Below are positions 2,060 to 62,450 of a stretch of 64,000 nt of DNA, in pieces. The translations under genes and the position numbers were made by a program. Each line of letters starts with the position of its first letter. Position 1 is the first letter of the stretch. Source of the stretch: an uncultured Hormoscilla sp. (GTDB taxonomy: Bacteria > Cyanobacteriota > Cyanobacteriia > Cyanobacteriales > Desertifilaceae); contig OZ001293.3 of assembly GCA_963921275.4 (NCBI GenBank), positions 3,232,001 to 3,296,000 of the forward strand, written 5' to 3'. The notes below the pieces were generated by a model that had not been told where the DNA came from, did no database searches, and worked only from the letters and a program-made list of their open reading frames with translations.

Positions 2060-2135
2060 GACTCCGTTCAAGCAAGCACAACGATGTCGTAACACCTGGG
2101 GGACATTCTCCTCCTTCCACTGTGCTCCAGATAAC
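2060..2135 (-). pseudogene. ISKra4-like transposase C-terminal remnant
   Basis: SGAQWKEENVPQVLRHRCACLNG; same motif as the remnant at 15412-15585. Confidence 0.5.
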
Positions 2136-2240
2136 GATTCCTTCAAGAGTGGTGAGTTGCTCCGGTACGGTAGCCAAAGCTTGCTCATGGAGTCGGGCCG
2201 CTTCCGGGCTTGAGCATGGGCTTCAATTTGGGCTTGGATT

Positions 2241-6308: not shown

Positions 6309-6658
6309 GTAAGCTCATTAGGGGGTAAAAACCAGTACGACAACCTACAGTTACTACACAAACATTGCCACGATATAAAGACTGCCAGCGATGGTAGTCA
6401 CAGCCGTACCCATGACAAGGGTGGCGTTACTGAGGAGCCGGATGATGCGAAAGTATCAAGTCCGGTTTTGGAGACGAGTCGGAGGGGTGACCCTCTGGCT
6501 TAGTTTAATAGTGCTTGGTGATGAAGGCGAACCGAAAAGCTCATATCCGTATAAATATTTATATTTTATGTTTGACAAATTGTCAGATAGATTACGTATT
6601 ACAAAATGTCGTGCAATGGCAATCGTACCGAGTAATTACATATTACTTAGCATATTAC

Positions 6659-11689: not shown

Positions 11690-12616
11690 AATTTGAATGC
11701 CTATCCATCAGGTTGCATAAGATGTCTATTTTTTCACCTTTTGACTACAACCATGAAGCAGATCGAGAGCTAATCAGTATTAGTTCCCCAGTCATAGCTG
11801 CCCAACTTCTTTTTAGAAGAACCACACACCCGCAAGCCTAACAATACTACCATAATAGTTGCGATCGGAGCATCTGCCGCCCCATCTGCCCCAGCTTTAA
11901 TGAGGGTGCATCCCAAAGTTTCGCTAAGTACAAATACTGAGATTTCAGAGAGAGGCTTTGAGGATAATCTATAAAAGTACTCTTCATCCTGGTAGAAGTC
12001 ATGAACCCAGAGTGCGATTCGTTTAGCATAAACTAACTTGACACGAGTCAAGAAGGGGGACCGCTGGCAGGGTTTATTAGCCCTGACAACTTACAGATGA
12101 TGGTGGTGAAAGCCCACCCCTCCAGGTGCAGGAGTGACAGCACCCTCCCCACGGTAGCGATGGCATCAATCCGTGAAGCGGGAAGGAAAGGCGTAATGAC
12201 TGGCAGCCTAAACTGGTCATCGCTAAGCAAGTAGCTATGATGAGCATAATGCGAAGATTTGCAACGTCGTTACATGAAACCAGCGGAATAAGGCTAAACA
12301 CGCTGGCCCAAAAGGGAAAGGATAATGGTCACTGGCGGATATATTCCTGACCAGTAAGCACTGACAATAAACCCGGCGTAAGGAACCCATCTAAAGTTAC
12401 AAATAATCATCGGTAGGAACGAAGTAAACCGGTTGCAGTACTCTCCATCACCGGTCGATAGATGGAGTAGCCACCACAGGCGTAACATCTGCTCTCCGGA
12501 AGGCAGGTCACAACCGGGAAAGATTGAGTGGAGAAGCAAACGCCCGTCTGTAATGGATGGGATAAGCTGACGCCCTCACAGTTTCGTCAATTGTAAAGTT
12601 GTAAGTAGTAGTGAAC

Positions 12617-29487: not shown

Positions 29488-29552
29488 AGCCCCACCCTAA
29501 AGCCCCACCCTAAAGGGTGGGGCTACATGAACGAAGCCCGCCTGCGCGGGCT
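29488..29552. repeat. REP-like element (AGCCCGC..GCGGGCT family); relatives at about 7741-7773 and 62341-62395
   Basis: GCCCCACCCTAAAGGGTGGGGC followed by AGCCCGCCTGCGCGGGCT. Confidence 0.65.
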
Positions 29553-30010
29553 ATTCTGGGATTCCTAGGATTTCGCTAGTTGTAAAGATTTGTGACATTT
29601 ATCCATTGGTTCGATCGGGCTTCCCTGTGATTCCCATGATTTCACTAATTGTAAAGATTTGTAACAATTACTGGTTCCCTGGGAATGCCTGAAAACGATC
29701 GCCCCTTGACGGAAAAGTGGCGATCGCCTATTATGAAAGATAGTACCTGTTAGATTGGTTATGGCATCAAAGACTTGGCATCAGTTAATCAAACAAGCCC
29801 AGACGCTGACCTATGACGAACAGCAGCGTCTAGCGGCACATTTGGATAAGATGATTCACCAGCAAGATCCATTTTGCAAGGGTCCGAATGAACAATCCAG
29901 TCAAGCTGCTGACTAGATTATAATCTTTTGGGAATCTCCTGCGGACAGTAGTAACTTAAATTGATTAGATATGTTGCCATCATAGGAAGTCTTACAGAAC
30001 GTTCCTAAAA

Positions 30011-30320
30011 ATGCCAACAACTCTGAAAATTGAAGCACAATTGTCCCGAATTACTAAAAGCCGTCAGACAGTTTACCTTGTCCGAATTAGAACAGTTTGT
30101 TCGCCAAGTTATTGCTTTACAGGCTCAACGCAAAGCGCCCAGTTTCTCCTCTGAGGAGACGAAATTGTTGCTAAAAATCAATCAGGGCATTCCACCGATA
30201 TTCAAGAACGCTATAATGCATTAATTACCAAGCGGCGAAACTTAACTCTGACACCAGATGAACACGCAGAGTTGTTATGCCTGAGTGACCAAGTTGAGGC
30301 GCTAGCAGCTCAGCGAGAAG
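30011..30320 (+). pseudogene. Frameshifted small hypothetical protein
   Basis: ELLKAV..ELEQFVRQV..LLLKINQGIP and LTLTPDEHAELL in different frames. Confidence 0.5.
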
Positions 30321-30340
30321 TTGACATTAAAGTCTCAAAA

Positions 30341-32138
<1,798 letters not shown>

Positions 32139-38128: not shown

Positions 38129-39442
38129 ATGAGTTTAACTACGATCAATGCCTTGAGTTTATTTTCTGGCTGTGGCGGGTGCAGTCTCGGTCTCAAGCAA
38201 GCCGGATTTGCTGTTAAACTGGCAGTGGATATTGATGCCGACTCTTGCGAAACTTATGCTGTTAATCTGGGACGGGAAACTCTCTGGCCCGTCGATCGCG
38301 TAGCGTGCGCGCAGCGCATTCTTTCTCACGTTCAGCCAGCAGAATTGTTAGGCCGATCGGGCCTGGACCCCACCGTTCCGGAAAAATCGGAACTAGATAT
38401 AATAGTAGGCGGACCTCCTTGTCAAGGATTTAGTTCAGCCGGGAGCAAAGATTGGGCAGACCCCAGAAATATATTATTGAAAAAGTTCGTGAAAATTGTC
38501 ACCAGTTTGCAGCCCACATGGTTTATCATAGAAAATGTCGAGGGTTTGCTCACCGCTAAAGAGGGCTTCTTTACGATCGAGGCGATCGCCAGATTCCTAG
38601 AGGCAGGTTATTGGGTGAAAGCGAAAAAAGTCTACATGGAACAGTACGGCTTACCGCAAAAGCGCAAGCGGGTATTTGTGGTCGGCAACTTGGAACAATG
38701 TCAGTTTGAATTTCCCCCAATAACCTACTACAACTCAAATCAACTGTCACTGTTCGATTTTTCGCGCAGCGATCTGCACCCTCAGCTATCCATCCTCGAC
38801 GCCATTGGGGACTTGCCAGCAGCTTCCGAATCGGGTATAGTAGTTTATGATCGATCGGGCTACGGTCCACTTCGCCGCCAAGACGGTAAACCAGTGCTGC
38901 ACCATCAACTCAAACAAGTGAATAGTCTCACCCAAGAGAGAATTAATTTGCTCGCCCCCGGTGCCACCATGAAAGATTTGCCAAAACATCTGCAACATGC
39001 CAGTTTTAACAGACGTGCTACCAGAAGAGTTATGGATGGCACCCCCACGGAAAAGCGCGGGGGCGCACCGAATGGCTTAAAGCGCTTATTGGCAAAGGAA
39101 CCCTCCCTCACTATCACCTCTGCTTCTCCTAGGGAATTTGTCCACCCGATCGAGAATCGACTGCTAACATTGAGAGAATGCGCCCGCCTTCAATCTTTTC
39201 CCGACTGGTACGAATTTCAGGGATCCTGGAGTTCAATTGCCACTCAAATAGGCAATGCAATTCCCCCAATGTTTATGAACTTACTAGCTACATATATTGG
39301 GGCGATCGCCACTTGGGAGGCAAAGAGAAATTCCCCAGGACGTTGGTTAGGAATTGATGCCACCAAATCTCGCAGCAAGAGTCCCAAATTAGCTAAAATG
39401 CTGGCCGAACTAGATCGCAAAACCTACAACTATGTTAGATAA
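38129..39442 (+). CDS. DNA (cytosine-5) methyltransferase
   Basis: LFSGCGG, GGPPCQGFS, IENVEG, QKRKR, RECARLQSFP, QIGNAIPP. Confidence 0.92.
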   Translation: MSLTTINALSLFSGCGGCSLGLKQAGFAVKLAVDIDADSCETYAVNLGRETLWPVDRVACAQRILSHVQPAELLGRSGLDPTVPEKSELDIIVGGPPCQGFSSAGSKDWADPRNILLKKFVKIVTSLQPTWFIIENVEGLLTAKEGFFTIEAIARFLEAGYWVKAKKVYMEQYGLPQKRKRVFVVGNLEQCQFEFPPITYYNSNQLSLFDFSRSDLHPQLSILDAIGDLPAASESGIVVYDRSGYGPLRRQDGKPVLHHQLKQVNSLTQERINLLAPGATMKDLPKHLQHASFNRRATRRVMDGTPTEKRGGAPNGLKRLLAKEPSLTITSASPREFVHPIENRLLTLRECARLQSFPDWYEFQGSWSSIATQIGNAIPPMFMNLLATYIGAIATWEAKRNSPGRWLGIDATKSRSKSPKLAKMLAELDRKTYNYVR

Positions 39443-40404
39443 AGAAACTCGTCAGTTAATTAACAAAGCCCGAACTCTAGGCGGCACGGGACTTTCTGTA
39501 TTTCTTGAAGATGACGAACTTTTACGAATCTGTGCCGTTGCTGCTATAGATTTAGACCGACAGCAGTTAGTCAACAATATTACGATGAGTGCAAATCTAG
39601 CAAATGGTTACTACGGGACACCTCTAGAATGGTTCGGGCAGCCAGTTTCCCCAAAAGTCAACTTCGAGGAGACATTTTTAATTCTCAAGCAGGCTATAGA
39701 AGACTTTCCGACCTACTTCAAGGTATTATGCGAACTGCATAAGTGTCGCTGAAATTATAACTAATATTGAAATATCAATCCATTCCGGAAATGGAACAGA
39801 TTGTCCCTCGCCGTTTGCTAGAATTCGGGTTGCGCCCTTCTGAAACACTGGCCTCTTGGTTAGTATGGGGAAAATGGCTTTATGACATCGATGATGGGTC
39901 TGCTCAAGAATCTGGTTACCTGCTTGAACCTATCTTGGCAGCGGCGATCGGTGGCGTTCCCTTTGCTGCTGCCAAGTCTCCCGTAATGCGGACAATTAAT
40001 CTACAAAAAGGACGGCAAGTAGACTGCCTTGATGGTAAACTAGCTTATGAGTTTAAGATGCGGGTTACGTCGCCGCTAGTGATCAGGGGAGATTCCAGGA
40101 GGAACTTGATTTCGCCCGTGATTGGTACGAGTCAGGTTATTCTCCCGTTCTGCTTGTTTTAGACTCTACGCCATCTTCCCGATTGGATGATATAATGGCA
40201 GGGTATTCCCGATATGGTGGTGGCGCTTACATGGGAAATGATGCCTGGAATCACATTAATGATCGTGCTGGAAAGGTGATGGGTAAGTTCGTTCAGAAAT
40301 ATGTGAGAACTCCTCTTCTTGAAGTGGACAGCACCTATACAAGTCTGCAAACGATTAGCCTGGTTAACTTGGGGACAACAATTAGAGTTCAGATGGGCGA
40401 TTGA
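39432..40404 (+). pseudogene. Putative type II restriction endonuclease, inactivated by a stop and frameshifts
   Basis: Overlaps the MTase end; QVDC..YEFK PD-(D/E)xK-like motif; three collinear ORF pieces. Confidence 0.65.
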
Positions 40405-42422: not shown

Positions 42423-43146
42423 ATGACAAATCTGGATAATTTGACTATCCATAGTTTCCGGAGACTGCAAGAGATCGACTTGCAGTCCTTGGGGCAAATA
42501 AACCTGTTTGTTGGAGTCAACAACTCCGGCAAAAGCAGCGTAGGCGATATCAACATACTGTCGTCCCTTAGACTCCCTAGCATGGCTAAATACCGCATCG
42601 AGAAATTAAGTCATCTCGCAAACCCCAGTTGGAAGCCCTCAAGTGGCTGTTTCCCCAGAATAGCACAGTCGGGGAATTCTATCAGGGAGAAATCCAGATC
42701 TCAGGGGATGGTAAATTTAGGGTAAGGGAGTTGATGATTTAGAAACAGCCATTCATACCTGAGTACTTAAACCTGCATTATCGTGGCTAGTTCAAGCCTG
42801 TCAGCAGATGGACGTACAGCTATTTGCAACAACTCACAGTTTGGAAACCGTAGACGAACTATTGGACGCTTCTGAAGCAATAGCAGATTTAGTTCTCTAT
42901 CGGTTATATCCAGGGCAAGCGCAAGAAAAATTTTGCATGTGGTATGGACCCACGAAAATTGCGAGTGGACTGTGCCCTATTCGCACTTCTTGAAGGCAAT
43001 CATTCTCATGATAGTTGATAATAGATGCCCCAAGCATGATTCTGGCGCTTACCCTGCGGTTATATTCACGGGAGTCGCGGACGAAATTGATCCGAAACGA
43101 TTGGAAACGGCTGTGGGAAGATGTAGGTATGGAGGTGCGCTGGTGA
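42423..43146 (+). pseudogene. Decayed copy 1 of the AAA/ABC ATPase
   Basis: Same N-terminus (GVNNSGKSS) and C-terminal pieces (VQLFATTHSLE) as 43294-44454, with deletions and frameshifts. Confidence 0.8.
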
Positions 43147-43293
43147 GGTATGCTATTAGAGTGGAATTGTTTGCTGGCATTGGCGGGTTGCGATCTAGCA
43201 TGGCATCTGCTAACATAGAATGGGCGAATGATATCAGTTAACTTGGCTGTCGAGTTTATGAAAGTAATTTTTGTCAAGGGGCGATCGTCTTCA

Positions 43294-44454
43294 ATGAAAA
43301 ATCTGGAAAATTTAACTATCCATAGTTTCCGGGGGCTGCCAGAGATCTGCTTGGAGTCCTTGGGGCAAATAAACCTGTTTGTCGGAGTCAACAACTCCGG
43401 CAAAACCAGCGTGTTAGAGGCGATATCAACATACTGTCGCCCATTAGACCCGCTAGCATGGCTAAATACGGCATGGCGTCGAGAGATCAAGTCATCTCGC
43501 AAACCCCAGTTGGAAGCCCTCAAGTGGCTGTTTCCCCAGAATGGTACAGTCGGGGAGTTTTATCAGGGAGAAACCCATATCTCTGGGGATGGCAAATTTA
43601 CGGTGAGGGAGTCCCGATCGATCTATCAAGAGTTTGAAGAAATTTGGGCAGATCCCGATCGCAGCATTGGTCGGGCGTTCCCATCAGCGGGGAATTTAGC
43701 TTACGACATCGAGGAGGTAAATTTAGGTCCTGCTACTGTTGTGCGGGGTGCAGAAGTACAGTTGAAAGCTACAATAGAGAAAGAAGAAAAGTTGCCCGAT
43801 CTGGAAATATCGGAAAGCTTCGTAATATGGGAGAATAGGAGTTTCGTCAAGCGGCGCCAACCTGGGACTGGGGAAGGAAAATCAGAGATTATGCTGTCGG
43901 TTGATGCGGTGACACCATTTGCTCACGCGATCGAACAGTTACAAGTAGAATTGCTATCAGAAGCGACTTTAGCGGGATTCAAGCCAGAAGTCATCAAATT
44001 ACTCCAGGTAATGGATAAAGAAATCGATGACTTACAAATATTATCGCATCGCGGGGATAGTCCGAGGCTCTATGTTAGCCACAAACAGACAGGAATGGGG
44101 CCATTAAGTGCTTGCGGAGAGGGAGTTTGTCGTCTGCTGTCCATCGCCTTAACTTTGGCCAAAGTGCGAGGAGGAGTTCTACTGATTGATGATTTAGAAA
44201 CTGCGATTCATACTGAAGTGCTCAAACCCTCATTTTCCTGGCTGGTTCAATGGTGTCAGCAGATGGACGTGCAGCTATTTGCAACAACTCACAGCTTGGA
44301 AACCGTTGACGAACTCTTGAGTGCTTCTAAGATAGCACCAGATTTGGTGCTATATCGATTATATCCACGGGAGTCGCGGACTAAATGGCTGAGAATAGAT
44401 CGCGATCGACTGCAACGAGTGCGGCAAGATTTGGGTATGGAGGTGCGCTGGTGA
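43294..44454 (+). CDS. AAA_15/AAA_21-type ABC ATPase (copy 2, intact)
   Basis: Walker A GVNNSGKT, Walker B LLIDDLETAIH, H-loop ATTHS. Confidence 0.88.
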   Translation: MKNLENLTIHSFRGLPEICLESLGQINLFVGVNNSGKTSVLEAISTYCRPLDPLAWLNTAWRREIKSSRKPQLEALKWLFPQNGTVGEFYQGETHISGDGKFTVRESRSIYQEFEEIWADPDRSIGRAFPSAGNLAYDIEEVNLGPATVVRGAEVQLKATIEKEEKLPDLEISESFVIWENRSFVKRRQPGTGEGKSEIMLSVDAVTPFAHAIEQLQVELLSEATLAGFKPEVIKLLQVMDKEIDDLQILSHRGDSPRLYVSHKQTGMGPLSACGEGVCRLLSIALTLAKVRGGVLLIDDLETAIHTEVLKPSFSWLVQWCQQMDVQLFATTHSLETVDELLSASKIAPDLVLYRLYPRESRTKWLRIDRDRLQRVRQDLGMEVRW

Positions 44455-45227
44455 GGTATGCTATCATTGGGGTTGAGGGACCGCAAGACCAAGCATTTGT
44501 TGGCAAGGTACTCAAGCAGCTACTGGGTTTCAAAGATTTTAGAAAGGAGTTGGGAGGATTAGAGGATAATTTGGACAAGTTCTGGCGCAAGTTTAAACCA
44601 AATTATCCCAAAGACGGAAATTTGTACAAGCGTCTGGATATGCCATCGATCCTGTATAATGATTCAGTTTCGGTGGCCATATATCCAGGAGAGGGGAGTA
44701 ACTTAGTGAATAGTTTGGATGAGTTTATCCGAAATAATCCTCCTTATCAAGAAGAACTGATGGCATTTGGGATTGTAGCAGATGCCGATCGGAAAGCGCC
44801 AGATGCGGTTGTGAAACCCTACTGTAATTGCTTTCGCAGCTATTTCCCTAATTTTCCTGACCTTGCTGGGGTGGTCGATACCAGCGTTCCTCGCACGGGA
44901 ATATACGTGTTCCCCGATAATGTTAACCCGGGAGTGTTGGATACTTTGCTATGTCTTTGTGGAGAAGTTGCTTATCCCGAGTACCTGGAAAGGGCCCAAG
45001 AGTATCTTGACAAGTTCTCGCCAGAGGAGAGAAAATCTCTGAAGTGGAAACCGTTCGATCGGGAAAAGGCCCTAGTTGCTACCGTGGTCAGCGTGCTGAA
45101 ACCGGGGAAAACCAATACCGTGAGTATAGCAGATAATAATTGGGTGAGTGGGCAAACGGAAACTGAGGTGACGGCGCTAGCTAATTTCAGAGATTTTTTG
45201 AGGGAACTTGTGAGTGTGGATGGATGA
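44451..45227 (+). CDS. DUF3226-like TOPRIM-fold protein (copy 2, intact)
   Basis: GVEGPQD and GIVADAD motifs; VFPDN..G.L; GTGA overlap with the ATPase. Confidence 0.7.
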   Translation: MRYAIIGVEGPQDQAFVGKVLKQLLGFKDFRKELGGLEDNLDKFWRKFKPNYPKDGNLYKRLDMPSILYNDSVSVAIYPGEGSNLVNSLDEFIRNNPPYQEELMAFGIVADADRKAPDAVVKPYCNCFRSYFPNFPDLAGVVDTSVPRTGIYVFPDNVNPGVLDTLLCLCGEVAYPEYLERAQEYLDKFSPEERKSLKWKPFDREKALVATVVSVLKPGKTNTVSIADNNWVSGQTETEVTALANFRDFLRELVSVDG

Positions 45228-45375
45228 AAAAGGATAAACTAAAAGCTGTGGAATTGTTTGCTGGTATTGGCGGGTTTCGCCTATGGCATCTGCTAACATA
45301 GAATGGGCGAATGATATCAGGACACTTTGCTGTCAAGTTGATGAAAGTAATTTTGGGAAAGGGGCGATCGTCTTA
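45224..45375 (+). pseudogene. 5' fragment of the 48133 C5-MTase (another at about 43160-43292)
   Basis: MKKDKLKAVELFAGIGGFR, near-identical DNA to 48133-48290. Confidence 0.8.
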
Positions 45376-45376
45376 A

Positions 45377-47367
45377 ATGAAAAATCTGGAAAATTTAACT
45401 ATCCATAGTTTCCGGGGGCTGCCAGAGATCTGCTTGGAGTCCTTGGGGCAAATAAACCTGTTTGTGGGAGTCAACAACTCCGGCAAAACCAGCGTGTTAG
45501 AGGCGATATCAACTTACTGTCGTCCTTTGGATGGGGTCGAGCCGGGAATCGCTTCCCGACCCTCCCTTGAGGAACCGGACTTGCGATTTTCACCGCATCC
45601 GGCTACTGGGTACTAGGCCCTTTTCATAGGTAGACTTAATAGGAATTACTTCCGTTAGCCCTTGCCGCCTGTCTTTTCTTCCCTTTCCTGGTTTAGCGAG
45701 TGGTTGTTCTGATAACCGTTAGTATCACCATTTTCAAGTCAGTTTTACCAGTTATCCATACCTTATCCTCCACTTGCGTTTCGGATTAGTTCCGTGGCTT
45801 TTTAGGATTACTCATTCCAGCAGCTTCCTAGTATCACCGACCCACGTCAGCGCTGGCTACCCAGCATCATCTACATTACTGTAGATGTTATCCCAGGAAT
45901 TACCCCGGGCATTCGCTTCTTGGGCCATCCCTCCCCCCGTGGCTTGCGCTTAACATCTAACTTGTCCTGATGGACAGCACACGAGAGGTTACTTCGTTCC
46001 CTAACAACATTTCGCGATACCTTTAGGTCCACACTATACCCCGGGAGCTATTTGAGTACTATATTAGCCAGAGTCTAAAACTAATACTAGCTACCATTTC
46101 CTTTTTAGGCCAGCGCATATAGCCTTATTTCGCTGGTTCCTTATAACGAGGCTTGCACATGTTTGCCTGCTCTAACCTTGGATATCTTTCCTAGCGGCGT
46201 CACCGGCTTAGGCTGCCAGTTATCCTACATTTGAGTCCTCGCTTAGCACCACGATGATGTCGCTTCGTAGCACCGAGGACCGGTGTCACCCCCGTCCCCC
46301 GTACCTGGGGGGAGGGGAATTTAACCCCCATGCGGTCAGAGTTCCCGGCTAATGAAACCGGGCTAGCGTTCCGTGTTTGACCACGTTAGGCTAGAACGAA
46401 TCGCACAGACCCCCTAGGGTGGCTAAATACGGCATGGCGTCGAGAGATAAAGTCATCTCGCAAACCCCAGTTGGAAGCCCTCAAGTGGCTGTTTCCTCAG
46501 AATAGTACAGTCCCCGTCGGGGAGTTTTATCAGGGAGAAACCCATATCTCAGGGAATGGCAGATTTCCGGTGAGGAAGTCGAAAGCGATCTACCGAGAGT
46601 TTGAAGGAACAAAGCCATACCCTGATAAAATTGAGGATGACATTGAATACGAGGAAACGCAAACTGTTAGAGGTGCAGAATTAGAGCTAAACGTTGTCCA
46701 ACTCAGTTCAGATTATTTGCCATATAAGCATGAGGAATTATCGACAAATTTTCAAATTTGGGAAAATGAGCGTTTTGTTAATCGTGGCAGGCGCTCAAAA
46801 ATAGAGCTGCCAGTCGAGACAGTCACTCCAGTTTCTCACCGCATTGAGAAGTTACAAATGGAATCGTTATCAAAAGCGACTTTCCATGAGTTAAAGCAAG
46901 ATATCATCAAATTACTCCAAGTAATGGACGAGGGAATTATCGACTTAGATGTTCTATACGATACTGGAGGTACTCCGAGACTTTATCTCAAGCACAAACA
47001 GATAGGGCGATCGCCGTTAAGTGCTTTCGGTGATGGTGTCCGTTGTCTGCTGTACATCGCCTCAAGTTTGGTCAAAGTGCGAGGGGGAGTTCTGCTGATT
47101 GACGAACTAGAAACAGCCATTCATACTGAAGTGCTCAAACCCTCATTTTCGTGGCTAGTTCAATGGTGTCAGCAGATGGACGTGCAGCTATTTGCAACAA
47201 CTCACAGCTTAGAAACCGTTGACGAACTCTTGAGTGCTTCTAAGATAGCACCAGATTTGGTGCTATATCGATTATATCCACGGGAGTCGGAGACTAAATT
47301 GCTCAGAATAGATCGCGATCGACTGCAACGGCTGCGGCAAGATGTGGGTATGGAGGTGCGCTGGTGA
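45377..47367 (+). pseudogene. AAA/ABC ATPase copy 3, join(45377..45528,46407..47367), interrupted by an antisense intron
   Basis: CCT TT|A GAC restores CRPLDPL; LLIDELE, ATTHS. Confidence 0.85.
45529..46406 (-). mobile_element. ORF-less group II intron F, copy 2 (878 nt, 7-nt internal duplication)
   Basis: Near-identical to 13643-14511 and 56762-57632. Confidence 0.92.
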
Positions 47368-48143
47368 GGTATGCTATCATTGGGGTTGAGGGACCGCAAG
47401 ACCAAGCATTTGTTGGCAAGGTACTCAAGCAGCTACTGGGTTTCAAAGATTTTAGAAAGGAGTTGAGAGGATTAGAGGATAATTTGGACAAGTTCTGGCG
47501 CAAGTTTAAACCCAACTATCCCAAAGACGGAGATTTGTACAAGCGTCTAGACATGCCATCGATCCTGTATAATGATTCTGTTTCGGTGGCAATCTACGCA
47601 GGAGAGGGGAGTAACTTAGTGACTAATTTGGAGAGCATTATCTCCGCTCATACTCCCTATCAAAAAAAACTGATGGCATTTGGGATTGTAGCAGATGCCG
47701 ATCGCAAAGCGCCAGATGCGGTTGTGGAACCCTACTGTAATTGCTTTCGCAACTACTTTCCTAATTTTCCAGATCGGGCTGGGGCGATCGATACCAGCGT
47801 TCCTCGGACGGGAATTTACGTGTTCCCCGATAATGTTAAACCGGGAGTGTTGGAGACTTTGCTATGTCTTTGTGGGGAAGTTGCTTATCCCGATTACCTG
47901 GAAAGGGCCTAAGAGTATCTTGAGAAGTTATCGCCAGAGGAGAGAAAATCTCTGAAGTGGAAACCGTTCGATCGGGAAAAGGCTTTAGTTGCTACTGTGG
48001 TCAGCGTGTTGAAACCGGGGAAAACCAATACCGCGAGTATAGCAGATAATAATTGGGTGAGTGGGCAAACGGAAACTGAGGTGACGGCGCTAGCTAATTT
48101 CAGAGAGTTTTTGAGAGAACTTGTGAGTTTTGATGAAGGATAA
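47364..48143 (+). pseudogene. DUF3226-like TOPRIM protein copy 3 with a premature stop
   Basis: CAA in copy 2 is TAA at 47910-47912; frame continues to 48143. Confidence 0.8.
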
Positions 48144-49284
48144 ACTAAAAGCTGTGGAATTGTTTGCTGGGATTGGCGGGTTTCGCCTGGGCATGGCAGC
48201 TGCTAACATAGAAACGGTATGGGCGAACGATCTCAGTACAGTTTGCTGTCGAGTTTATGAAAGTAATTTTGGTCAAGAGGCGATCGTCTTAGGGGATATT
48301 AGCAAAATCAATCCTGAAGAGATCCCCGAACACGACATTTTGACAGCGGGTTTTCCTTGCCAACCCTTCAGTCCGGCGGGTAAGAAACAAGGGGTGCGAG
48401 ATCTACGCGGAACGCTTTTCCAGCGCATTGTGGAAATTCTCCAGGTCAAACAACCGCAATATTTTTTGCTCGAAAATGTGAAAAGAATTCTGACAATGGA
48501 AAAGGGTCATCACTTCCGAGTAATTTTATCGGCATTGGTGGAGTTAAACTACGCGATCGAATGGCGGATCGTTAATCCGATAATATTGGGAATTCCCCAA
48601 AGTAGAGAAAGAGTTTTTATTATGGGAACGAAATGCGATCGGTTGAGTCCAATACCCGACTTAGAAAGATTATCAGTATTTTTGACCGATAATGATGGGG
48701 ATAGTTTAGGAAATTGGGAAAATGGTCTGTTGCCAATTAGGGAGGTAAGCAGTAAGAACTATAACTGGGGTATTGCTTACAATAATCAGATGTATACTCA
48801 GCAGTTACCACCATTGCCTGACATCAAACCCAGAAAGAAACTGAAGGATATTCTCCAATATGATTCCGAACTCGGTACCCAGTTTGATTTTACTGCGGAC
48901 ACGATCGATCGCATCAAGCAGAGTCAAGCAGTAAATCGCTATTGCAATGGGGTGGAAATATTATATAATCAGAAAGGAGGGGCGCGTTTGGGATATACTA
49001 TATTTGGGATTAACGGTGTGGCATCGACCTTAACGGCATCAACATCAAGGCATTACGAACGGTATCGGGTAGGCGATCGCTTTCGCCGGTTAACGCATGT
49101 CGAGTATGCCCGTTTAATGGGATTTCCTGATGACTGGTGCCGGGTGGCGAGAGTCTACGATCGATATGCCTTATTTGGGAATGCGGTAGTGCCAGCTTGT
49201 GTAGAGTGGATCTGCAAAAGAATTGGCCAGCAAAATTTTGAATTAAAGCATCCACAATGGCAACAACTGACTTTAGCAATTTAA
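48133..49284 (+). CDS. DNA (cytosine-5) methyltransferase
   Basis: ELFAGIGG, GFPCQPFS, LENVK, QSRER, ARLMGFP, GNAV. Confidence 0.93.
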   Translation: MKDKLKAVELFAGIGGFRLGMAAANIETVWANDLSTVCCRVYESNFGQEAIVLGDISKINPEEIPEHDILTAGFPCQPFSPAGKKQGVRDLRGTLFQRIVEILQVKQPQYFLLENVKRILTMEKGHHFRVILSALVELNYAIEWRIVNPIILGIPQSRERVFIMGTKCDRLSPIPDLERLSVFLTDNDGDSLGNWENGLLPIREVSSKNYNWGIAYNNQMYTQQLPPLPDIKPRKKLKDILQYDSELGTQFDFTADTIDRIKQSQAVNRYCNGVEILYNQKGGARLGYTIFGINGVASTLTASTSRHYERYRVGDRFRRLTHVEYARLMGFPDDWCRVARVYDRYALFGNAVVPACVEWICKRIGQQNFELKHPQWQQLTLAI

Positions 49285-49302
49285 AATAGAGAGTCGCAGA
49301 AG

Positions 49303-50797
<1,495 letters not shown>

Positions 50798-51142
50798 CGC
50801 TATGGCGCAAAGGAGTTGCCAAAAATCCGCAGTCGATGTGCGACCTGTATCACTTGACAAGCATGCAGACGATATTATCTCATGCTTGTCAAGTGATACA
50901 GCCGGGCAGTACGAGTAGGACATCGAAGGCGATCTCATCTTTGAGTTTACCACTCAGTTGAGGCGGGTTTGACATCACCGATATAAACAAATAAAGTTGC
51001 ATGTTTACGGGAGAATATTTGACATAACGGGTAGTGGAGGGTGGGCACCGCCCACCCTACGTTCGATATAATCTTTCCCAACCCACAGCAGCTTCACGCA
51101 GGTGGGAGGGACCGCATAGTATTGTTCCGGTTGTAGAATCAA

Positions 51143-53815
51143 TTACTCATCCTCTATCTCCTCATTCTCCATTAACAAGACATACTCCTCAATTTGCTTT
51201 GCCAAGTGAAGAGGTAAGGGAAGTTTGAGTGCTTCGTCATATTGGAGTGCAATATGTCGCAGTTTATGTGTCAGCGCTGCCCAGGGAAATACCTCATCTC
51301 TAGGTTGAAGACAGGCAACAGTTATTTCAAATAAACCAGGATTCCAGTAATATTTATGAGGTGATTTATTCTCTCCTGCTTTCGATTGATTAGGGCTGAG
51401 ATCCCTAAACTTCTTCGACTTTTGGTAAGTGCTAGCAAACACTCGATCGCCCATTTGAAAAACGCCCTCGGCAAACCCCTGTTGATTCCGATCCGGTTTT
51501 TGGGCATACCACTCTGGTGTTTCGTTACTCTGACTATCGCGAAGGCGCAAGATCCGAAGTCCTTTCAGGCGATTAATGTTGAGTGACCTTCCGTTGTTGC
51601 CAAAAGCCACAGTTTCGGTTGATATCTGTCCGTTGTTCAGCCAGGACCAAGTGCTTCGCAGGTTCTGAGCATGGCAGAGCAAGAGAGTGTCTCCCAGTGG
51701 CAAAACGTCACCCTTCAGTTTCTGCTCGATGAAGGACATAGCTTGTCCTTTACGATCGACTCCTTCTCGGGCAATTTTCAGCAGCGCCTCTCGATAAGGC
51801 AGCCAACTATCAAAACCAGGCGCGATCGCCTTTATTTCCGTGGTGTCCGATGCCATGTAAACCATCACTGGCACTCGCTGAGTAGTGCCATCTGCACTGG
51901 TTGGCGCATTCTGTTTAATTAACCACAAACCAACGTAGTTGAGCCGTTCTGGCAATTTGAGCTGCTTAGTATTTTTCTTTCTATCTTCTGTAAGAACTAT
52001 CTTTGGAGGCCCGACCTGTACTCCCATCTGACGCAGAAGATCGAGGAATCCAGTGATGGAACTATGGGACAGATTGGGATTATCAACGCTCATAAATTGC
52101 GTTATGCGTCCGGCGATGGCAAATCCCCGCCTGAGAGCGTTGTAGGGATCGCGATCGCTCTTAAAATTCTCCTTGCCTGCGATTTCGATCAAGGCTACAG
52201 TTACAGATGATGCTTGGGGAACTTTTTCTGCTATTTCTTTACCGCGCTGAATAATTGCCTGTTGTCGTCTGTCCCTTCTATTTCCCATATCGGAGTTAAG
52301 TTGCAACTCATCACCAAGAGCACCCAATGGCTGCGCCTGTATATTCAGGGTAAATTCCAGGTCGGGAAATTTGTAGGGAAATGAGGCGGATGCTGGAATT
52401 CCCAGACAATGACTGACAGATTTTATCAAAGTATCGCGTGTTGTCTCCCGTTGATACCAGATTTCTATTGTTAGGCGGCGATCGCTGACTGCTTCACTTA
52501 TGCTGACTGCTTCACTTATAGCGCCGCTAAGGACAGATTGAGTTTGTTGCAGCGTCTCCATCTTGGCTTCTGCTAGTTCTTCACCATCTTTTGCAGGTCT
52601 CGGCAACTCTGGAGATTGCGGGATAGAAGCAACATGAAACTTAACCCTCTGAGGCATTTCTACGAATTCCCACTCTGGTGCTATCAGGTTTGCTATCTGT
52701 TCGGCAAGCAGGCGACGGTCTGCTGGTGAAAAACCGGCATCAACCCGATGATCGGGTTTTATGCCATTTCGGAAAACCACCGCTTCGTTAGGACTGCCAT
52801 TCAGGTTTAGTGCTGAGGTCGGATATGCCACGATCTCCTCGGGAGTAGGAAAGGGCTGTTGAAGGTTCAACCTGTCTAATAAGGGTACTAAATTGCTGCC
52901 CCAATTTAGGCGGTACTGCGACTTATTTTGTTGCTGTTCCGATGCTGACAAGCGCTTCCATCCGATCGGCGCTACTTGAAAACTGTTTGAATTGTGCAGT
53001 TCCTCAAGCCAAGGAACTTTAGTGAGTAGATAAACACTGGTTTCTTCGCCACCAGGAATACTACTTTTTGGCTGACTAACCCAGCGCCGCAGACTCAGGT
53101 CGCAGTGGAGTACCGGGAAACTTTGGAAAGGCACTGTCTGAAGAGTAAAAGTAATCACAACAGACCAGTACCAACTGCTACGCTTGTCAGCATAATCGAG
53201 TGGCGGCCAAGAGACCAGTTCAGCCCCCTTGCTGCCAATAGGCAGCGGTGCGCGTCGAAAGCGGAGAAGATCCGAACCAAATTCAATCGATATGTTGTCT
53301 TGACTCAACTTGGCTGCCAAAACGTGGGGCAGCAAGATAAAGTTATTATTGCCTCTCAGTTCTGCCGTGCCGTTAGCTGCTGTCGTCCAGGTCCCTACAT
53401 TCACTGTCGTTGCTTCCCACTGCAAATCCTCTTTTGGCAGCTTTTTCAGCAAAGCGGTAATTTGCTTCTCAGAAGCCTTCCCATCAAATTGCGTTCTTAC
53501 CCAAGCATTGAAAATTAAATACAGCGCCTGTATATTGATAGGCATTGCACTGTACAGCCAAGGTTGCACCTTACTTTTAGCGGCGTTAGGAGTAATGTAG
53601 ATCAGGTCTGGCACCAGTGCCCGGAGGGCTTTGTTCAGCGAACTTATCGGCACGTTAGTTTTATCTACGGGACGGCGCGTAATCTCTGCCTGTAAATTCC
53701 TTAGCTCTGATTTCCATTTTTCAGGAAACTTGAGAATCTGAAAAGTCTGCGGTTTCAGAGGTTTGCCCTCTGGCAGACGAAAGGAAAGAGTCCGTAATTG
53801 GTCATAGATCGGCAT
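51143..53815 (-). CDS. pPIWI-RE module PIWI-like protein (pPIWI_RE_X, MID, RNase H-like)
   Basis: ISSLNKALRALVPDL, TLQTVP, LRRW, GRITQF, LRLR..ETPEW, LPLPLHLAK; last gene of a REase-helicase operon. Confidence 0.85.
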   Translation of the reverse strand: MPIYDQLRTLSFRLPEGKPLKPQTFQILKFPEKWKSELRNLQAEITRRPVDKTNVPISSLNKALRALVPDLIYITPNAAKSKVQPWLYSAMPINIQALYLIFNAWVRTQFDGKASEKQITALLKKLPKEDLQWEATTVNVGTWTTAANGTAELRGNNNFILLPHVLAAKLSQDNISIEFGSDLLRFRRAPLPIGSKGAELVSWPPLDYADKRSSWYWSVVITFTLQTVPFQSFPVLHCDLSLRRWVSQPKSSIPGGEETSVYLLTKVPWLEELHNSNSFQVAPIGWKRLSASEQQQNKSQYRLNWGSNLVPLLDRLNLQQPFPTPEEIVAYPTSALNLNGSPNEAVVFRNGIKPDHRVDAGFSPADRRLLAEQIANLIAPEWEFVEMPQRVKFHVASIPQSPELPRPAKDGEELAEAKMETLQQTQSVLSGAISEAVSISEAVSDRRLTIEIWYQRETTRDTLIKSVSHCLGIPASASFPYKFPDLEFTLNIQAQPLGALGDELQLNSDMGNRRDRRQQAIIQRGKEIAEKVPQASSVTVALIEIAGKENFKSDRDPYNALRRGFAIAGRITQFMSVDNPNLSHSSITGFLDLLRQMGVQVGPPKIVLTEDRKKNTKQLKLPERLNYVGLWLIKQNAPTSADGTTQRVPVMVYMASDTTEIKAIAPGFDSWLPYREALLKIAREGVDRKGQAMSFIEQKLKGDVLPLGDTLLLCHAQNLRSTWSWLNNGQISTETVAFGNNGRSLNINRLKGLRILRLRDSQSNETPEWYAQKPDRNQQGFAEGVFQMGDRVFASTYQKSKKFRDLSPNQSKAGENKSPHKYYWNPGLFEITVACLQPRDEVFPWAALTHKLRHIALQYDEALKLPLPLHLAKQIEEYVLLMENEEIEDE

Positions 53816-56800
53816 TTATGCCTCCTATCTTTTCAATAGCTGTATAAAATGGTCCATAGAGTGCCTGCACCAGTTCCCGTTCTCGGGGCGCGATTTCCCT
53901 CTCAGAATCGGTGGCAAAATAAGGACGCAACACTTCTTTGATGCTGACTAACAGACTGGTTATTGGTTCGTCGCCTATATCGTCATTGAATGCAGTGCGC
54001 CGAGCAAAAGCAGCATCGCAGAAAAAGACTTCCGCTTGACAGCCACCCCTTATCAGACGCCAGATCGCCTGCCAGATGGAAACCAACTGATTCCATGTTA
54101 CAGCTTCTCGATCGTTTTCGCGCAGACTGCTGTAAATCATTGGCAAACTCATGAGATGACGCCAGCGAACGTAAGCCTCTTTACGGAATGTATTCCCAAC
54201 TCGATCGAGTGTTAGCAAACCATCCTGCTGTATATCCTGGGTAGTGCTAGTGCTAATATCGCTCTGTTGGGATACAGCACATTGAGCGGTCAGCCATTCG
54301 GTGTCGGCGTAATGTTCGATCGCCCAACGATTGATAGAATGAAGGGCATAGCTGATATCATCGGGACGGGGATGGGGACGCACGAGAAAATAAGCCGCGC
54401 CAATGGCAGCTTTATCCTCATCATTGAGAATATTATGTCCGCGCTCGATCGCCATCAAGGGTGCAATCAAAATCCAAGCACCCGTCTTGTCAAACTGATG
54501 TACGAGTCCCCGTTGTATCCCTCGCTCTCCAGTTCCCCCCTTACTCCATTGCGTACCAAACTCATCATCATCGCGAACCAGACGCAGAACTTGTCCGCGC
54601 CACTCAGATCGAATGTTTTCCAGATGTGTTTGGGCCAGTTTCGCCTGATCGTAACTACCTACAAGCAATAGAATGCGCTGACGCCCAACTTCTAGTTCAT
54701 CTCGTTTTCGCTCTAGTCTACTCGGACCGCCTAAACCGCCTGGTTTTGCCAATTGATTGAGCAGTTCTTTGAGTGCCCCTTCTCGGTCGTGGCTGCCAGA
54801 AACAGTAATTGGTTTGTTCTCTCGATCGTAAAATGGACTGAATTCAAAGTAGCTTTCTTGAATTGCCTGTAATTCTTCCTCGGGCGATCGCAGCACTCCC
54901 GCCACTGGTACCTGTACGTGATATCCCGGTGCTTTTCCTGCCCAACTTGTTCCTGAAAGCAACAAGACTGATGGTCCGGCAATGCCATCGCTGGCAAATA
55001 GTTCGTGCAGGTGCAGTAAGAACCAGCGTCCCACACCCATGCACTTGAAAAACCGCAAATCTCCCGGTCCGCTGTCGCTGGAACTGACATATTGGAAAGC
55101 TAGCACGTTACCCATCGGAGCCACGGGAATCACTCCTTCATAGTCTCTGGGCGGACTGTAGAATAACATCGAACTTTGCTCTTGTAACTTCAGAGGCTCT
55201 TCCACATGTTTCCAGTCCCGCAACATCCGGTAAAGTCGGTTTTGCAGCACTGCCACTAAGAGGGCAAATGGAGTTTGCACTATAGCATGTTCTCGTCGTT
55301 CTTCTGTCAAGGTGACATCAGGCTCTTTATTCTCATCGATCCATTCACCCAGGCGCAGGCGCAGCAGATCATCATCTATAACCGCGATCGCGAGCCGAGT
55401 CAGTTCGCACAGAGGGTTGTTGCTGCGATCGCCGAGGGGATCTCCGATGTAATTATTAAATTCTTCCATCAGTCGGCGATAGCCTTGATGCTTGTCGCGT
55501 GTCTTCTCGCGAGCGCCAGAAAGAGCGATCGCCAACTTGTCTAGAATTAGCCAGTCTGTAAAGTATTCTCTCCGATCGATCCACTCCCTGAGCGCTGGTT
55601 GTGGTTGACTCAGGATGAGGGCATAGATGCGACTCGTTGCCGTCTGCACCATGTCATGGGCTTTGCACCAGCGATCGACATCCGGATCGACCAATTGTCC
55701 GCGTCCCCCTTGATTTAGCTGCTGCACCACTGGTTGCTGAACTTGACTAAACCATCCATCCCCTTTCTGACCGAATAGCTTTTCCCCGGGACTGAACAAA
55801 CTGTCGAGTTGCACTTGCACTTGGTCGGCTTCATCAACAATGACCAAGTCGCTGCGACGATACACTAACTCGGAAAAACGAATGCTTTCCTGGTTTATTT
55901 GTGGCGCGACGCGACTGTAAACTAAGCTAGCTGGCGTAGCAATCCAAATTTTGGCATCCACTAAGTCCCGCTGTACCTGATGAAACGGGCAAGCACTATA
56001 GAGAGGACAAGCATAGGTTTTACTTGTATCTGGTTGTTCTTGTTCTTCATCATCTGATTCACTGGTGGGAGAGAGTGCCAGACAAGGCTGTTTGCCCGTT
56101 AAGAAAGGTTTTGCCACATCCCGACGCAGTTCGCTTAAAGGACAAGCGGTACTCAGCCACCGGAAACCGACGTGTTCTTGATTGAATTTTTCTAAGGGAT
56201 GTTCGGCATTCCAGGCACGGTGCAAGCGGTTAGTATGGCGATCGCGGTTGGATGCACCCAACATGGGAGCAACGGAGATCCCTAAGCGATCGAATAGTCG
56301 AGCGCGGTTCAGGGCCGAGATCACGTCTCCGACGACGATCGTTACGTGGAGTTCCTGTTTAGCAGCCCAAACTGCCAAGATATCCATTAAAGTTGATTTC
56401 CCTGAAGACACCATCCCGATCAGGTGCATCAACCCATTAAATGTTAGCTTCTCAGCACGAGTGAGGGTGTCATCGGAACCAAACAGGTCTAGGCGTACCC
56501 TGGATAGACGTTCTTTCCAGTTACCGTCAGACTGAGTATCCATCCACCGAGCAGTCTCCAGCAAATCTTCCCAAGTAACAGTAATTGTCTGTCTTTGATT
56601 AATCCCCGTCAAGTCGTGACCAGACGGTGGCGGAAATACCAACTCCTCAGCCAGATCGACAGTGACTCGATATTTGCCATCGCTACACTCGTACTTACCA
56701 GCAGTAGCCCATTTAACCGAGTTTTTCCGATGGGGTAGAGGTTCTTCAAGAGTCTTCCCGTGGATGGGGTCGAGCCGGGAATCGCTTCCCGACCCTCCCT

Positions 56801-58032
56801 TGAGGAACCGGACTTGCGATTTTCACCGCATCCGGCTACTGGGTACTAGGCCCTTTTCATAGGTAGACTTAATAGGAATTACTTCCGTTAGCCCTTGCCG
56901 CCTGTCTTTTCTTCCCTTTCCTGGTTTAGCGAGTGGTTGTTCTGATAACCGTTAGTATCACCATTTTCAAGTCAGTTTTACCAGTTATCCATACCTTATC
57001 CTCCACTTGCGTTTCGGATTAGTTCCGTGGCTTTTTAGGATTACTCATTCCAGCAGCTTCCTAGTATCACCGACCCACGTCAGCGCTGGCTACCCAGCAT
57101 CATCTACATTACTGTAGATGTTATCCCAGGAATTACCCCGGGCATTCGCTTCTTGGGCCATCCCTCCCCCCGTGGCTTGCGCTTAACATCTAACTTGTCC
57201 TGATGGACAGCACACGAGAGGTTACTTCGTTCCCTAACAACATTTCGCGATACCTTTAGGTCCACACTATACCCCGGGAGCTATTTGAGTACTATATTAG
57301 CCAGAGTCTAAAACTAATACTAGCTACCATTTCCTTTTTAGGCCAGCGCATATAGCCTTATTTCGCTGGTTCCTTATAACGAGGCTTGCACATGTTTGCC
57401 TGCTCTAACCTTGGATATCTTTCCTAGCGGCGTCACCGGCTTAGGCTGCCAGTTATCCTACATTTGAGTCCTCGCTTAGCACCACGATGATGTCGCTTCG
57501 TAGCACCGAGGACCGGTGTCACCCCCGTACCTGGGGGGAGGGGAATTTAACCCCCATGCGGTCAGAGTTCCCGGCTAATGAAACCGGGCTAGCGTTCCGT
57601 GTTTGACCACGTTAGGCTAGAACGAATCGCACCGACTCGATCGCGGTTAGAACAAATGCTGACTTCCCGGGACGAAAACGGTTCTAGGTTCTCGTCTACA
57701 TTGAAACCTCGCAGAATCTCGTCTACTTGGCGATAGCGCTGCAACGATCGCTCCCAATTGTATTTGCTTCTAAATTGGGTGAGAATATGGCGGGCATTAC
57801 CTAGCATCCGATGTTGTTTTTCACTCCAGTTTGCTGCTGACGCCACGGGAAACGGATAGCCCGTCAGCAACACCCATAGGGCAATGGCCGGGGCATCCGA
57901 GTCCAACTGAGACAAGAGATAAAGCCCCAACTCAATATCACAAAATGTGGAAAAATTCAAATCCGTTGCTGTTTGCTTCAGGCGATCGCGTATTGCTTTC
58001 AGTTTCTCTCGCCATTTACTTGTATCGCGCAT
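53802..58032 (-). CDS. pPIWI-RE DinG-like SF2 helicase (pPIWI_RE_Z), join complement(57633..58032,53802..56761), 1119 aa
   Basis: MRDTSKW start, GMVSSGKST, VDEAD, Cys cluster, LSGTSW, ERGHNILN; junction GTC G|AC GGG is open into the 946-aa ORF. Confidence 0.85.
56762..57632 (-). mobile_element. ORF-less group II intron F, copy 3 (871 nt), sense to the helicase
   Basis: Near-identical to the other F copies. Confidence 0.92.
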
Positions 58033-58281
58033 TTACTTCTTTCTCCCTAGAACGTCGGTACTGATAACCGGGTTTCTGCGAATGGTTCTAACCCAAGCAA
58101 TACTATCTTGCATTTCTAGGCGATCGCGCCACATCCCTACAAACGCTGAATTTTCTAAATTTAACGGTTTTGGTGCTTGTTCGTAGCGTTCCTTGAGAGT
58201 AGCCACAAAATCTAAAACCCGTTGTCGATCTGTTTCAGAAAGGGTGATAAAGTCACTTGTTAAGCGTTCAATATCAAGCAT
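58033..58281 (-). CDS. Small DUF2281-like (antitoxin-like) protein
   Basis: QRVLDFVATLK..FVGMWRDR..DSIAWV. Confidence 0.5.
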   Translation of the reverse strand: MLDIERLTSDFITLSETDRQRVLDFVATLKERYEQAPKPLNLENSAFVGMWRDRLEMQDSIAWVRTIRRNPVISTDVLGRKK

Positions 58282-58450
58282 AAATTTCTCCTTTTTTATG
58301 AAAATTGGGTTCTGACTAACCGCCAAAATCTGCACGACACTCACATGGGATTGGTCGCCATCGCCTGTAGTAACCTTTGAAAACATACTATTTCAGTAAA
58401 CAAACTTTTACTACTCAATTCCAGAAGTCCCGAAGTTTCTAGCTTCTACT

Positions 58451-58888
58451 TTACGGACGATCTAGCTTGCGTTTTACATCTTCAATTAACTCCTTCTCAA
58501 ACTTGGCCTTAATCTGCTTGGGAAGCCCTGTATGGTTGCAAAATGCTCGTTTATAATCGGAACGTTGTTGCTGGCGATCGTCTGGGAAGACGAAGTAACC
58601 TTGCTTCCAAGGTGGGTCGCTGGGAATCAGCGGATCTTGCTGCTTAACTTTCCGTGCCAACAAGAAAGGATCTTTCCAATCTTTAACATCGATCGCCCAT
58701 GCCTCGCCGTCTGGGAAAACAATTCGCAGATCGTAGCTGTCAAAATTAGGCCATAGTTCCACTTGCAGTTCCAACTTTTCCAGTTTATCAGCCAATCGGA
58801 GTTCGGCGCGACCGGGTGCCGCTACAAACCGCCGTGGTCCTCGCTTCAACCAAAGCACTCCCTCTTTTTGGGGAACCTGACGCCACTG
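58451..58888 (-). pseudogene. pPIWI-RE-associated REase domain, N-terminally truncated
   Basis: PGRAELRL, LWPNFDSYDL, WAIDVKDW, VFPD; no upstream ORF continuation. Confidence 0.8.
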
Positions 58889-59257
58889 GCAATTAGATGT
58901 AAAGTCAACTCGTCGAACGATAGCGCTGGTTCATTGTAGCTAGCAGTCATTCCACCTCCCGGTATTTATGCAGAATCCACGTACATCTACTATAGCTCGA
59001 CTTGAATAAAAAGTCAACTCTCAATTTCTTCTACCCCAGGACTTACACTCGCTCCCTGTGTCTCGCAGGGAACGAAACATCCCGAGGCTCTGCTCGTGTC
59101 CAGAGACACCCACCCTAATAGGGTGGGTGCTCTCGGACACGACCTCCAGAAATGAAAAATTTGCTCTGCCGACAGGATCTTATCGTGATTGAAGAGGCCA
59201 TTGATAGCCCGCTTCTAACCATGCTGGTCGATCCACGGAGGGTAGTTCAGGCCACGA

Positions 59258-59290
59258 GGGGTTAGGGGTTAGGGGTTAGGGGTTAGGGGT
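59258..59290 (+). repeat. (GGGGTTA)n heptamer tract
   Basis: 4.7 perfect units. Confidence 0.85.
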
Positions 59291-59310
59291 ATTGAGTAAG
59301 CTTGCAAAAA

Positions 59311-59541
59311 AAAATACTTTATGTGAAAAAAAATTGACTTATTTTTGGCAAAAATAAGCTTAATGTCAAAAATAATAAACTTATTTTAGCCAAAAATAAA
59401 TTTATTAAAAACAATAATAAACTTATTTTTTAACAAAATAAGTTTATTATAATTAATAATAAACTTATTTTCGGTCGTAATAAACTTATTTTCGGTCGTA
59501 ATAAACTTATTTTCGGTCGTAATCGACTTATTATCTGTCAA
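59311..59541. repeat. About eleven 21-bp tandem units with palindromic core AATAANNTTATT
   Basis: Unit starts every 21 bp from 59311 to 59521; three perfect AATAAACTTATTTTCGGTCGT. Confidence 0.85.
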
Positions 59542-62228: not shown

Positions 62229-62450
62229 TCCCTGCTATCATCTAACAATCTTATCACACTTTCTCACCTATTGTCAACGATCGCCCCTGAGGGGAATCTC
62301 GATCGCCAGTCACCTCGGGCGCATCTCACTTTTGTAATCTAGCCCGCGCAGGCGGGCTTTGTTCGCGTAGCCGGGCCCTTTAGGGTTCGGGCGGCTAAGC
62401 AAATATGAGATGCACCCGTCACTTCCTCACCAAAAGCGACTATTTCTGCT

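Follow-up and report, generated by a model that had tools for sequence, protein, structure and literature searches.

Group IIB introns without open reading frames in a restriction endonuclease gene and a pPIWI-RE helicase gene of an uncultured Hormoscilla

The 64,000-nucleotide window analyzed here (positions 3,232,001 to 3,296,000 of contig OZ001293.3, assembly GCA_963921275.4, from an uncultured Hormoscilla sp.) lies on a 6.88-Mb cyanobacterial chromosome whose closest named relatives are Hormoscilla metagenome-assembled genomes. Two defense loci in it are each split by a group II intron without an open reading frame (ORF). On the forward strand, a C5 cytosine DNA methyltransferase (MTase) gene of a type II restriction-modification (R-M) pair (48130 to 49284; 384 aa; PF00145, E = 4e-74; PADLOC MTase_II, E = 5e-87) precedes a restriction endonuclease (REase) gene, whose relatives are named NspV-like, in two exons (49303 to 49786, matching positions 1 to 161 of 220 of PADLOC profile REase_II PDLC03454, and 50622 to 50797) around an 835-nt intron (49787 to 50621; domain V/VI at 50543 to 50620). 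On the reverse strand, a pPIWI-RE island comprises the PIWI gene (51143 to 53815; 890 aa, open frame; PF13111, PF18157, and PF13032; PprPIWI in PADLOC), a DinG-type helicase gene in two exons (exon 1, 57633 to 58032, with domain Z, PF18155, E = 8e-31; exon 2, 53802 to 56761, PprDinG in PADLOC, E = 3e-211) around an 871-nt intron (56762 to 57632; domain V/VI at 56764 to 56840), a small inserted gene (58033 to 58386; no match in Pfam or PADLOC), and a nuclease pseudogene (58451 to 58950), recognized by blastn against intact alleles and matched by the PprRE profile only at positions 218 to 324 of 340. As the initial annotation had observed, both introns lie on the coding strand of their host genes and the MTase gene is uninterrupted. 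From this it had proposed that defense may be gated by splicing, with neutral decay of unneeded genes as the alternative; the alternative is the better fit.

Both elements are confirmed as genuine ORF-less group IIB (chloroplast-like) introns. Their domains V/VI score 46.6 and 44.4 bits against RF00029 (gathering cut-off, 40), the domain V/VI hairpins fold with z scores of -2.65 and -3.64, both introns begin with GTGCG in agreement with GUGYG, and neither encodes a protein, the longest frames being 57 and 58 codons. The fold check covered the hairpins of exon-binding site (EBS) 1, domains V and VI, and the J2/3 context; D3 fragments folded no better than shuffled sequences. The excisions predicted initially were borne out: removal of 49787 to 50621 gives a 219-aa REase (joined at ER/NLPLDE) and removal of 56762 to 57632 a 1119-aa helicase (RV/DGKT), in agreement with copies, covariation, and intron-free alleles. 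When four and six boundary pairs were tried at the two introns, the frame was kept only by these pairs and by twins shifted by one base, which do not begin with GTGCG. Intron-free 219-aa relatives of the REase read ERNLPLDE, three of four same-genus genomes (G001 to G003) lack exactly 49787 to 50621, and contigs from a DNA run of another study bridge both sites without introns (DNA contigs were compared from four of the six listed sequencing runs). An assembly artifact is excluded by contigs of runs X2 and X4 that cross an exon-intron junction of the helicase gene, together with the differing flanks of the copies. The target consensus of the two families (72 family A copies, 139 family B copies) is complementary to the EBS1 and EBS2 loops, whose positions were chosen by eye from that consensus (family A, EBS2 UCUAG at about 50041 to 50045 and EBS1 UGCACU at about 50108 to 50113 on the forward strand; family B, EBS2 UAAGG at about 57372 to 57376 and EBS1 AGACUC at about 57304 to 57309 on the reverse strand), and the +1 base, which would pair with EBS3, is conserved.

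The 3' ends, GACT and ATCC, do not follow the canonical AY. All 72 full-length A copies have T as their last intron base and all 139 full-length B copies have C, while the bases that follow differ from copy to copy; the last base covaries with J2/3 in the γ-γ' interaction (GGA with C in 140 introns, AGA with U in 115; 255 of 259 matched). Because sister ORF-less families end in TAAT at the same position and because of this covariation, the 3' ends of A and B are best read as a variant and no mis-call. AY-type ends (50620; 56763 to 56764) were rejected, as they break the frame and conflict with the copy flanks. Genome-wide, the ORF-less families end four bases past CTCGACCCC (GACT, GACC, ATCC, or TAAT), again with γ-γ' covariation, and have a presumed branch A 9 bases before the intron end; introns bearing a reverse transcriptase (RT) mostly end TTAGTTTAAT.

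The two introns belong to a genome-wide swarm. The domain V/VI profile gave 501 matches, all on the main contig, and eight Rfam matches fall in the window, two of them at the introns described above. End-to-end pairing was achieved for 420 introns, equal to 6.6% of the chromosome, of which 62 are nested (twintrons), 72 belong to family A (that of the REase intron), and 141 to family B (that of the helicase intron; 139 to 141 copies). The 72 A and 139 B copies are at least 97% identical with a common target consensus, occupy 49 and 96 distinct top-level sites, respectively, and have an A-rich flank at -14/-15, a feature reported as selected for TeI3c with the TeI4c RT (PMC2882425). An open frame of at least 540 aa with YADD, of RT size, is present in 29 of 58 long introns, and a maturase would be available in trans in this genome. 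Insertions at the REase and helicase sites are absent from the congeners covering them, both insertions being recent and confined to this lineage.

Next to the R-M pair, in a defense-like AAA_21 ATPase gene (45377 to 47367, forward strand; PADLOC candidate PDC-M38A), lies a family B intron in antisense (45529 to 46406, reverse strand) that the initial annotation had not mentioned. Its removal likewise restores the frame (371 aa read through), and it cannot splice from the ATPase mRNA. Given the precision of retrohoming, any group II insertion leaves a restored frame once it is removed, whichever its strand; arguments from a restored frame therefore call for caution. Other copies were seen in passing. 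A leucine-rich repeat (LRR) protein gene of the window (30272 to 32138) holds a sense family A intron (30651 to 31485) that is 100% identical to the REase intron, and a paralogue at C1:3350903 holds two introns. Four DUF4347/LRR/cadherin adhesin-like paralogues (L028, L044, L048, and L070) carry repeated antisense family B insertions, apparently at one common site.

In the R-M pair, the two genes are adjacent and co-directional with conserved residues present, the REase being complete only after intron removal. REase exon 1 is 95% identical to a 219-aa Hormoscilla protein. Of the 110 columns with at least 90% conservation among 120 homologues, the exon-joined REase matches 108, and the remaining two are one I/L change and the masked junction codon. 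The locus resembles known type II pairs of a C5 MTase and an NspV-like REase (PADLOC PDLC03272 and PDLC03454) and differs from them by the intron-split REase. Left unspliced, the gene would give a 175-aa product without the conserved C-terminal quarter. The intron site pairs with the EBS at 10 of 11 positions, a level reached by 15 of the 49 A sites. A crude, uncalibrated search for targets detected no strong A or B site in the MTase gene. An A or B intron occurs in only 79 of 5789 called genes, so that an intron-free MTase is the default expectation. G002, G003, and the more distantly related G017 have both genes of the pair intact; in G004 the REase is deleted after about 41 codons, and in G001 the MTase is deleted and the REase stops at codon 8. 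The R-M locus thus decays repeatedly in this genus. The genome under study has three REase copies with intron A at one site, two of them 5'-truncated fragments without an MTase. Their flanks are 92 to 94% identical and their introns 99.5 to 99.8%, which points to separate homing into a common target, with later conversion between intron copies as the alternative. Because the truncated fragments were hit at the same site, the target, rather than the function, would seem to attract the intron. The type II REase is predicted to be either silenced or made at a reduced level through maturase-assisted splicing, and we put the chance that useful enzyme is made at about even. With an intron-free allele and identical target in G003, the locus is a handy splicing reporter.

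The second locus has the gene order of the three-gene pPIWI-RE system (Burroughs et al. 2013, PMC3702460), described as a REase, a DinG helicase with domain Z, and pPIWI-RE on one strand with overlapping ends. Unlike the canonical system, the window REase lacks the Y/zinc-ribbon half and is frameshifted, the helicase is interrupted and altered in motif VI, and an extra small gene stands between the first two genes. Intact, intron-free operons in four relatives encode nucleases of 369 to 375 aa and helicases of 1090 to 1104 aa. Compared with the intact 369- and 372-aa alleles in L104 and L105, the window nuclease keeps its start and its C-terminal REase domain and has lost about 607 bp (the Y domain) with a frameshift; no full-length REase with a Y domain is present in the window. 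The downstream partner of the small gene (143 aa in L105) is mostly deleted. In the helicase, motif VI (QxxGRxxR) reads QAIWRLIR, with Trp (codon 54060 to 54062, reverse strand) where 116 of 118 matched homologues and all four close relatives have Gly; one further homologue gave no match. A change from Gly to Trp at this position of a superfamily 2 helicase is expected to abolish activity. The spliced junction would encode Asp, where 103 of 103 homologues have Tyr or Phe, and the site pairs poorly with its intron (EBS1, 5 of 6 with -1 unpaired; EBS2, 2 of 5), only 5 of the 96 B sites being as poor. The unpaired -1 base is the same junction base that lies behind the Asp, and the intron-free allele of run X5 has the matching base. 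The intron is absent at four of four related helicase loci, and no complete island was recovered from G002 and G003 (94% and 97% complete). Given the frameshifting deletion in the nuclease, the motif VI Trp, and the poor intron-site pairing, we consider the pPIWI-RE system very likely dead irrespective of the intron, with the open frame of the PIWI gene weighing on the other side. An evolved splicing gate for the helicase is excluded in practice.

Across the genome, 358 top-level junctions divide into 102 sense, 52 antisense, 184 intergenic, and 20 at gene edges, called frames holding 154 of them. Against score-matched empty targets, with distinct sites counted, antisense insertions fall below expectation in both families (A, 3 of 49 versus 17%; B, 18 of 96 versus 28%; p of about 0.04 each, uncorrected); the excess of sense insertions is not significant (p = 0.27 and 0.17), and genic insertions do not differ (p = 0.77 and 0.54). 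The resulting sense bias is mild and genome-wide, and defense hosts do not differ in it from other hosts (6:1 versus 45:21 sense:antisense, p = 0.67). Stronger EBS pairing at sense sites was considered as a mark of selection for splicing; sense sites scored 8.94 and antisense and intergenic sites 8.90 (p = 0.91). For gene class, the larger exon was scanned in 71 A/B host genes, to which the four window hosts were added and from which one artifact was dropped (74 of 79; set aside were four near-duplicate paralogues among the 79 and, from the other families, 26 of 55 hosts), and the controls were 240 length-weighted intron-free genes drawn from 469 candidates in 40 evenly spaced 20-kb regions. 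With core genes classified by hand, the clear signal is core-gene avoidance (4 of 74 hosts versus 58 of 240 controls, p = 0.0002). The enrichment in defense genes for which the initial annotation had suggested a genome-wide check was not clear, at these small numbers, for strict defense genes minus the two that prompted the analysis (5 of 72 versus 9 of 240, p = 0.33), and it faded among non-core genes alone, whether the class was strict (5 of 68 versus 9 of 182, p = 0.54) or broadened by toxin-antitoxin and Uma2 genes (11 of 68 versus 16 of 182, p = 0.11).

Sense ORF-less introns of families other than A and B sit mid-gene in enolase (C1 1799446 to 1801634, L158; intron at codon 264 of 430), zwf (C1 6446254 to 6448716, L160), prfC (C1 2134219 to 2136713, L161), and an intein-bearing 1158-aa gene (C1 848310 to 852697, L159) that we read, from a motif, as a putative class II ribonucleotide reductase; each of these genes has one tblastn match in the genome. 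A family A intron lies in sense in glutamate synthase (C1 5579212 to 5584762, codon 488 of 1572), of which a 46% paralogue is present. The enolase intron is absent in G001 to G003. The enolase of G004 (L170:559-3000, G004:C14) holds a different sense group II intron, which encodes an RT (598 aa), and the same essential gene appears to have been invaded independently in this congener. Because ORF-less introns sit mid-gene in the single-hit enolase and other genes, it is suggested that introns of this group splice. Introns in cyanobacterial housekeeping genes, and action of RTs in trans on ORF-less introns, have been reported (PMC4424553). That families A and B avoid core genes suggests in turn that their splicing is too inefficient to be cost-free. 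In ribD and queG the insertion point is just some 20 codons short of the gene end.

We therefore favor, with good confidence, retrohoming filtered by purifying selection as the explanation of both insertions, with attenuation as a by-product. Two recent non-autonomous group IIB families would have spread by retrohoming, the intron RNA pairing through EBS1, EBS2, and EBS3 with any matching DNA target of about 13 nt, being reverse-spliced into it, and then being reverse-transcribed with an RT that an ORF-bearing intron would supply. Selection would remove core-gene and antisense insertions, and dispensable genes (defense, adhesins, tetratricopeptide repeat/LRR, signaling) would retain them. The pPIWI-RE island would be decaying, its intron being one of several lesions, and a REase silenced or reduced via maturase-assisted splicing would be a by-product and no evolved gate. 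Several points weigh against this explanation. The gene calls come from a simple in-house ORF caller with junction codons masked, and ychF, at first a candidate antisense-broken gene, was rejected because its intron lies upstream of the likely start (an upstream-extension artifact of the caller); this artifact was kept in the orientation counts against empty targets and removed from the gene-class counts. No driver RT emerged from a comparison by DNA likeness of six RT-intron families, which have only short stretches in common with A or B. The REase carries no second lesion, and the number of private substitutions in the helicase is within the range of its relatives (14 of 746 versus 10 to 22), leaving general decay by substitution unsupported. 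Six of seven strict defense hosts are sense. Strict defense including the two prompting genes reaches 7 of 74 versus 9 of 240 (p = 0.067), a count that leans to enrichment because those two are PADLOC-classed and the Pfam-negative controls were not PADLOC-scanned, and defense with toxin-antitoxin and Uma2 genes reaches 11 of 72 versus 16 of 240 (p = 0.031). A roughly twofold excess of defense-like hosts is thus neither shown nor excluded.

The splicing gate proposed initially, in which introns are kept in toxic nuclease and helicase genes to delay or dampen defense relative to the MTase, or to switch it via maturase supply, is very improbable. In its favor, the REase has an intact frame, a site among the best paired, and an intron-free MTase; further sense hosts are two GmrSD genes and type ISP, Eco57I-domain, and HEPN genes, and group II introns are reported to cut host mRNA to 28 to 45% in tested cases (PMC6003770). 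However, the insertions are private (the three congeners that cover the REase site all lack it, and it is present at none of four related helicase loci), non-functional REase fragments hold the same intron, the adjoining ATPase holds an antisense copy, and the pPIWI-RE system is broken by other lesions. Enrichment in defense genes is weak and the sense bias genome-wide, the control sample holds intron-free XamI REase, HsdR, HsdM, and Cas6 genes, the sense hosts include an Eco57I-domain methylase gene as well, and an intron identical to dozens of copies leaves no locus-specific control. The claim that expression depends on splicing or on a trans maturase holds trivially for the full-length proteins, with 29 RT frames at hand, but amounts to no defense-specific gate. 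A narrower version seems to us doubtful, namely that the REase is a working spliced gene whose level relative to the intron-free MTase is set by a trans maturase pool common to hundreds of ORF-less introns, among them some in single-copy housekeeping genes, so that restriction follows retroelement activity; if true, a bacterial genome would possess a common, proto-spliceosomal splicing service reaching immunity. It could also be that both genes are dead, the introns splicing too little in vivo and the knockouts having become fixed by drift in a host-associated lineage. Other grounds make this nearly certain for the helicase. Moreover, even the sense insertions of A and B avoid core genes, EBS pairing is not stronger at sense sites, and ribD and queG are hit only near the end. 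Yet mobility itself requires splicing, antisense insertions are depleted, and the mid-gene introns of enolase (in G004 as well), zwf, prfC, the intein gene, and glutamate synthase speak for it too, so for the two genes together we hold this as a tentative possibility. Alternatively, the sense bias may be mechanistic, the ribonucleoprotein preferring, in transcribed DNA, the non-template strand, or else one of the two replication strands, which is silent on splicing rescue. A replication-related strand bias of ORF-less introns has been reported (PMC8919778) and genic insertions overall do not depart from the matched empty targets, but the fourfold deficit in well-transcribed core genes is left unexplained, and we regard such a bias as unlikely.

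These are real introns with correct junctions and a known mechanism. As in Thermosynechococcus elongatus TeI3/TeI4 (Mohr et al. 2010, PMC2882425), they are ORF-less, chloroplast-like IIB elements with families defined by EBS loops, twintrons, an A-rich -14/-15 flank, and intact RT introns elsewhere in the genome. Mobilization in trans, shown for TeI3/TeI4, would apply here by analogy. That report counts 17 ORF-less and 8 ORF-bearing introns, few of them intragenic, in contrast to the approximately 420 paired introns found here, and the hosts here include R-M, pPIWI-RE, and single-hit housekeeping genes. Expansion of chloroplast-like introns in a filamentous cyanobacterium is also described for Arthrospira platensis (Miura et al. 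2022, PMC8919778), where a maximum of 101 introns per genome is given among 1790 representative bacterial genomes, which non-representative ones may exceed; unlike in that survey, whose methods differ, domain V/VI matches here number in the hundreds, and most paired introns are ORF-less. In making host output splicing-dependent and lower, a sense intron in the REase would resemble the Ll.LtrB intron of the relaxase gene ltrB (Qu et al. 2018, PMC6003770), an effect also reported for EcI5 (IIB) and BhI1; Ll.LtrB, however, is ORF-bearing, at a single site in a relaxase host, and was measured, whereas here the host is a restriction enzyme. Narrow full-text searches of open-access literature returned no report of a group II intron within a restriction endonuclease gene and no paper about introns of Hormoscilla. 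Locally, the window illustrates a burst of introns that settled in dispensable genes. The genome as a whole is of greater value: its several hundred introns exceed the published 101 and include sense insertions in enolase and further single-hit genes, and it offers a natural system for testing the trans-splicing of ORF-less introns.

The AAA_21 gene with the antisense intron belongs to three tandem AAA_21/DUF3226 (PDC-M38-like) units at 42423 to 47912, namely one fragment, one intact pair, and one with the intron and a premature stop, its DUF3226 partner (47364 to 47912, forward strand) ending at 182 aa where the paralogue at 44385 to 45227 has 280 aa. At 38129 to 40162, a second C5 MTase gene is followed by a partner split into 106- and 131-aa frames for which no family match was found, likely another decayed R-M pair. 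A promoter and terminator scan gave no more predictions than shuffled sequences. Upstream of the pPIWI-RE island, 59270 to 59520 is AT-rich, with three tandem repeats of a unit of about 23 nt and CCCTAAC repeats. Two lone Rfam CRISPR-DR28 matches (29530 to 29553 and 62340 to 62363), with no array, are probably a dispersed short repeat. At 1850 to 6510 and 11700 to 14511, RT-intron fragments, tandem domain V/VI copies, and nested ORF-less introns are piled up.

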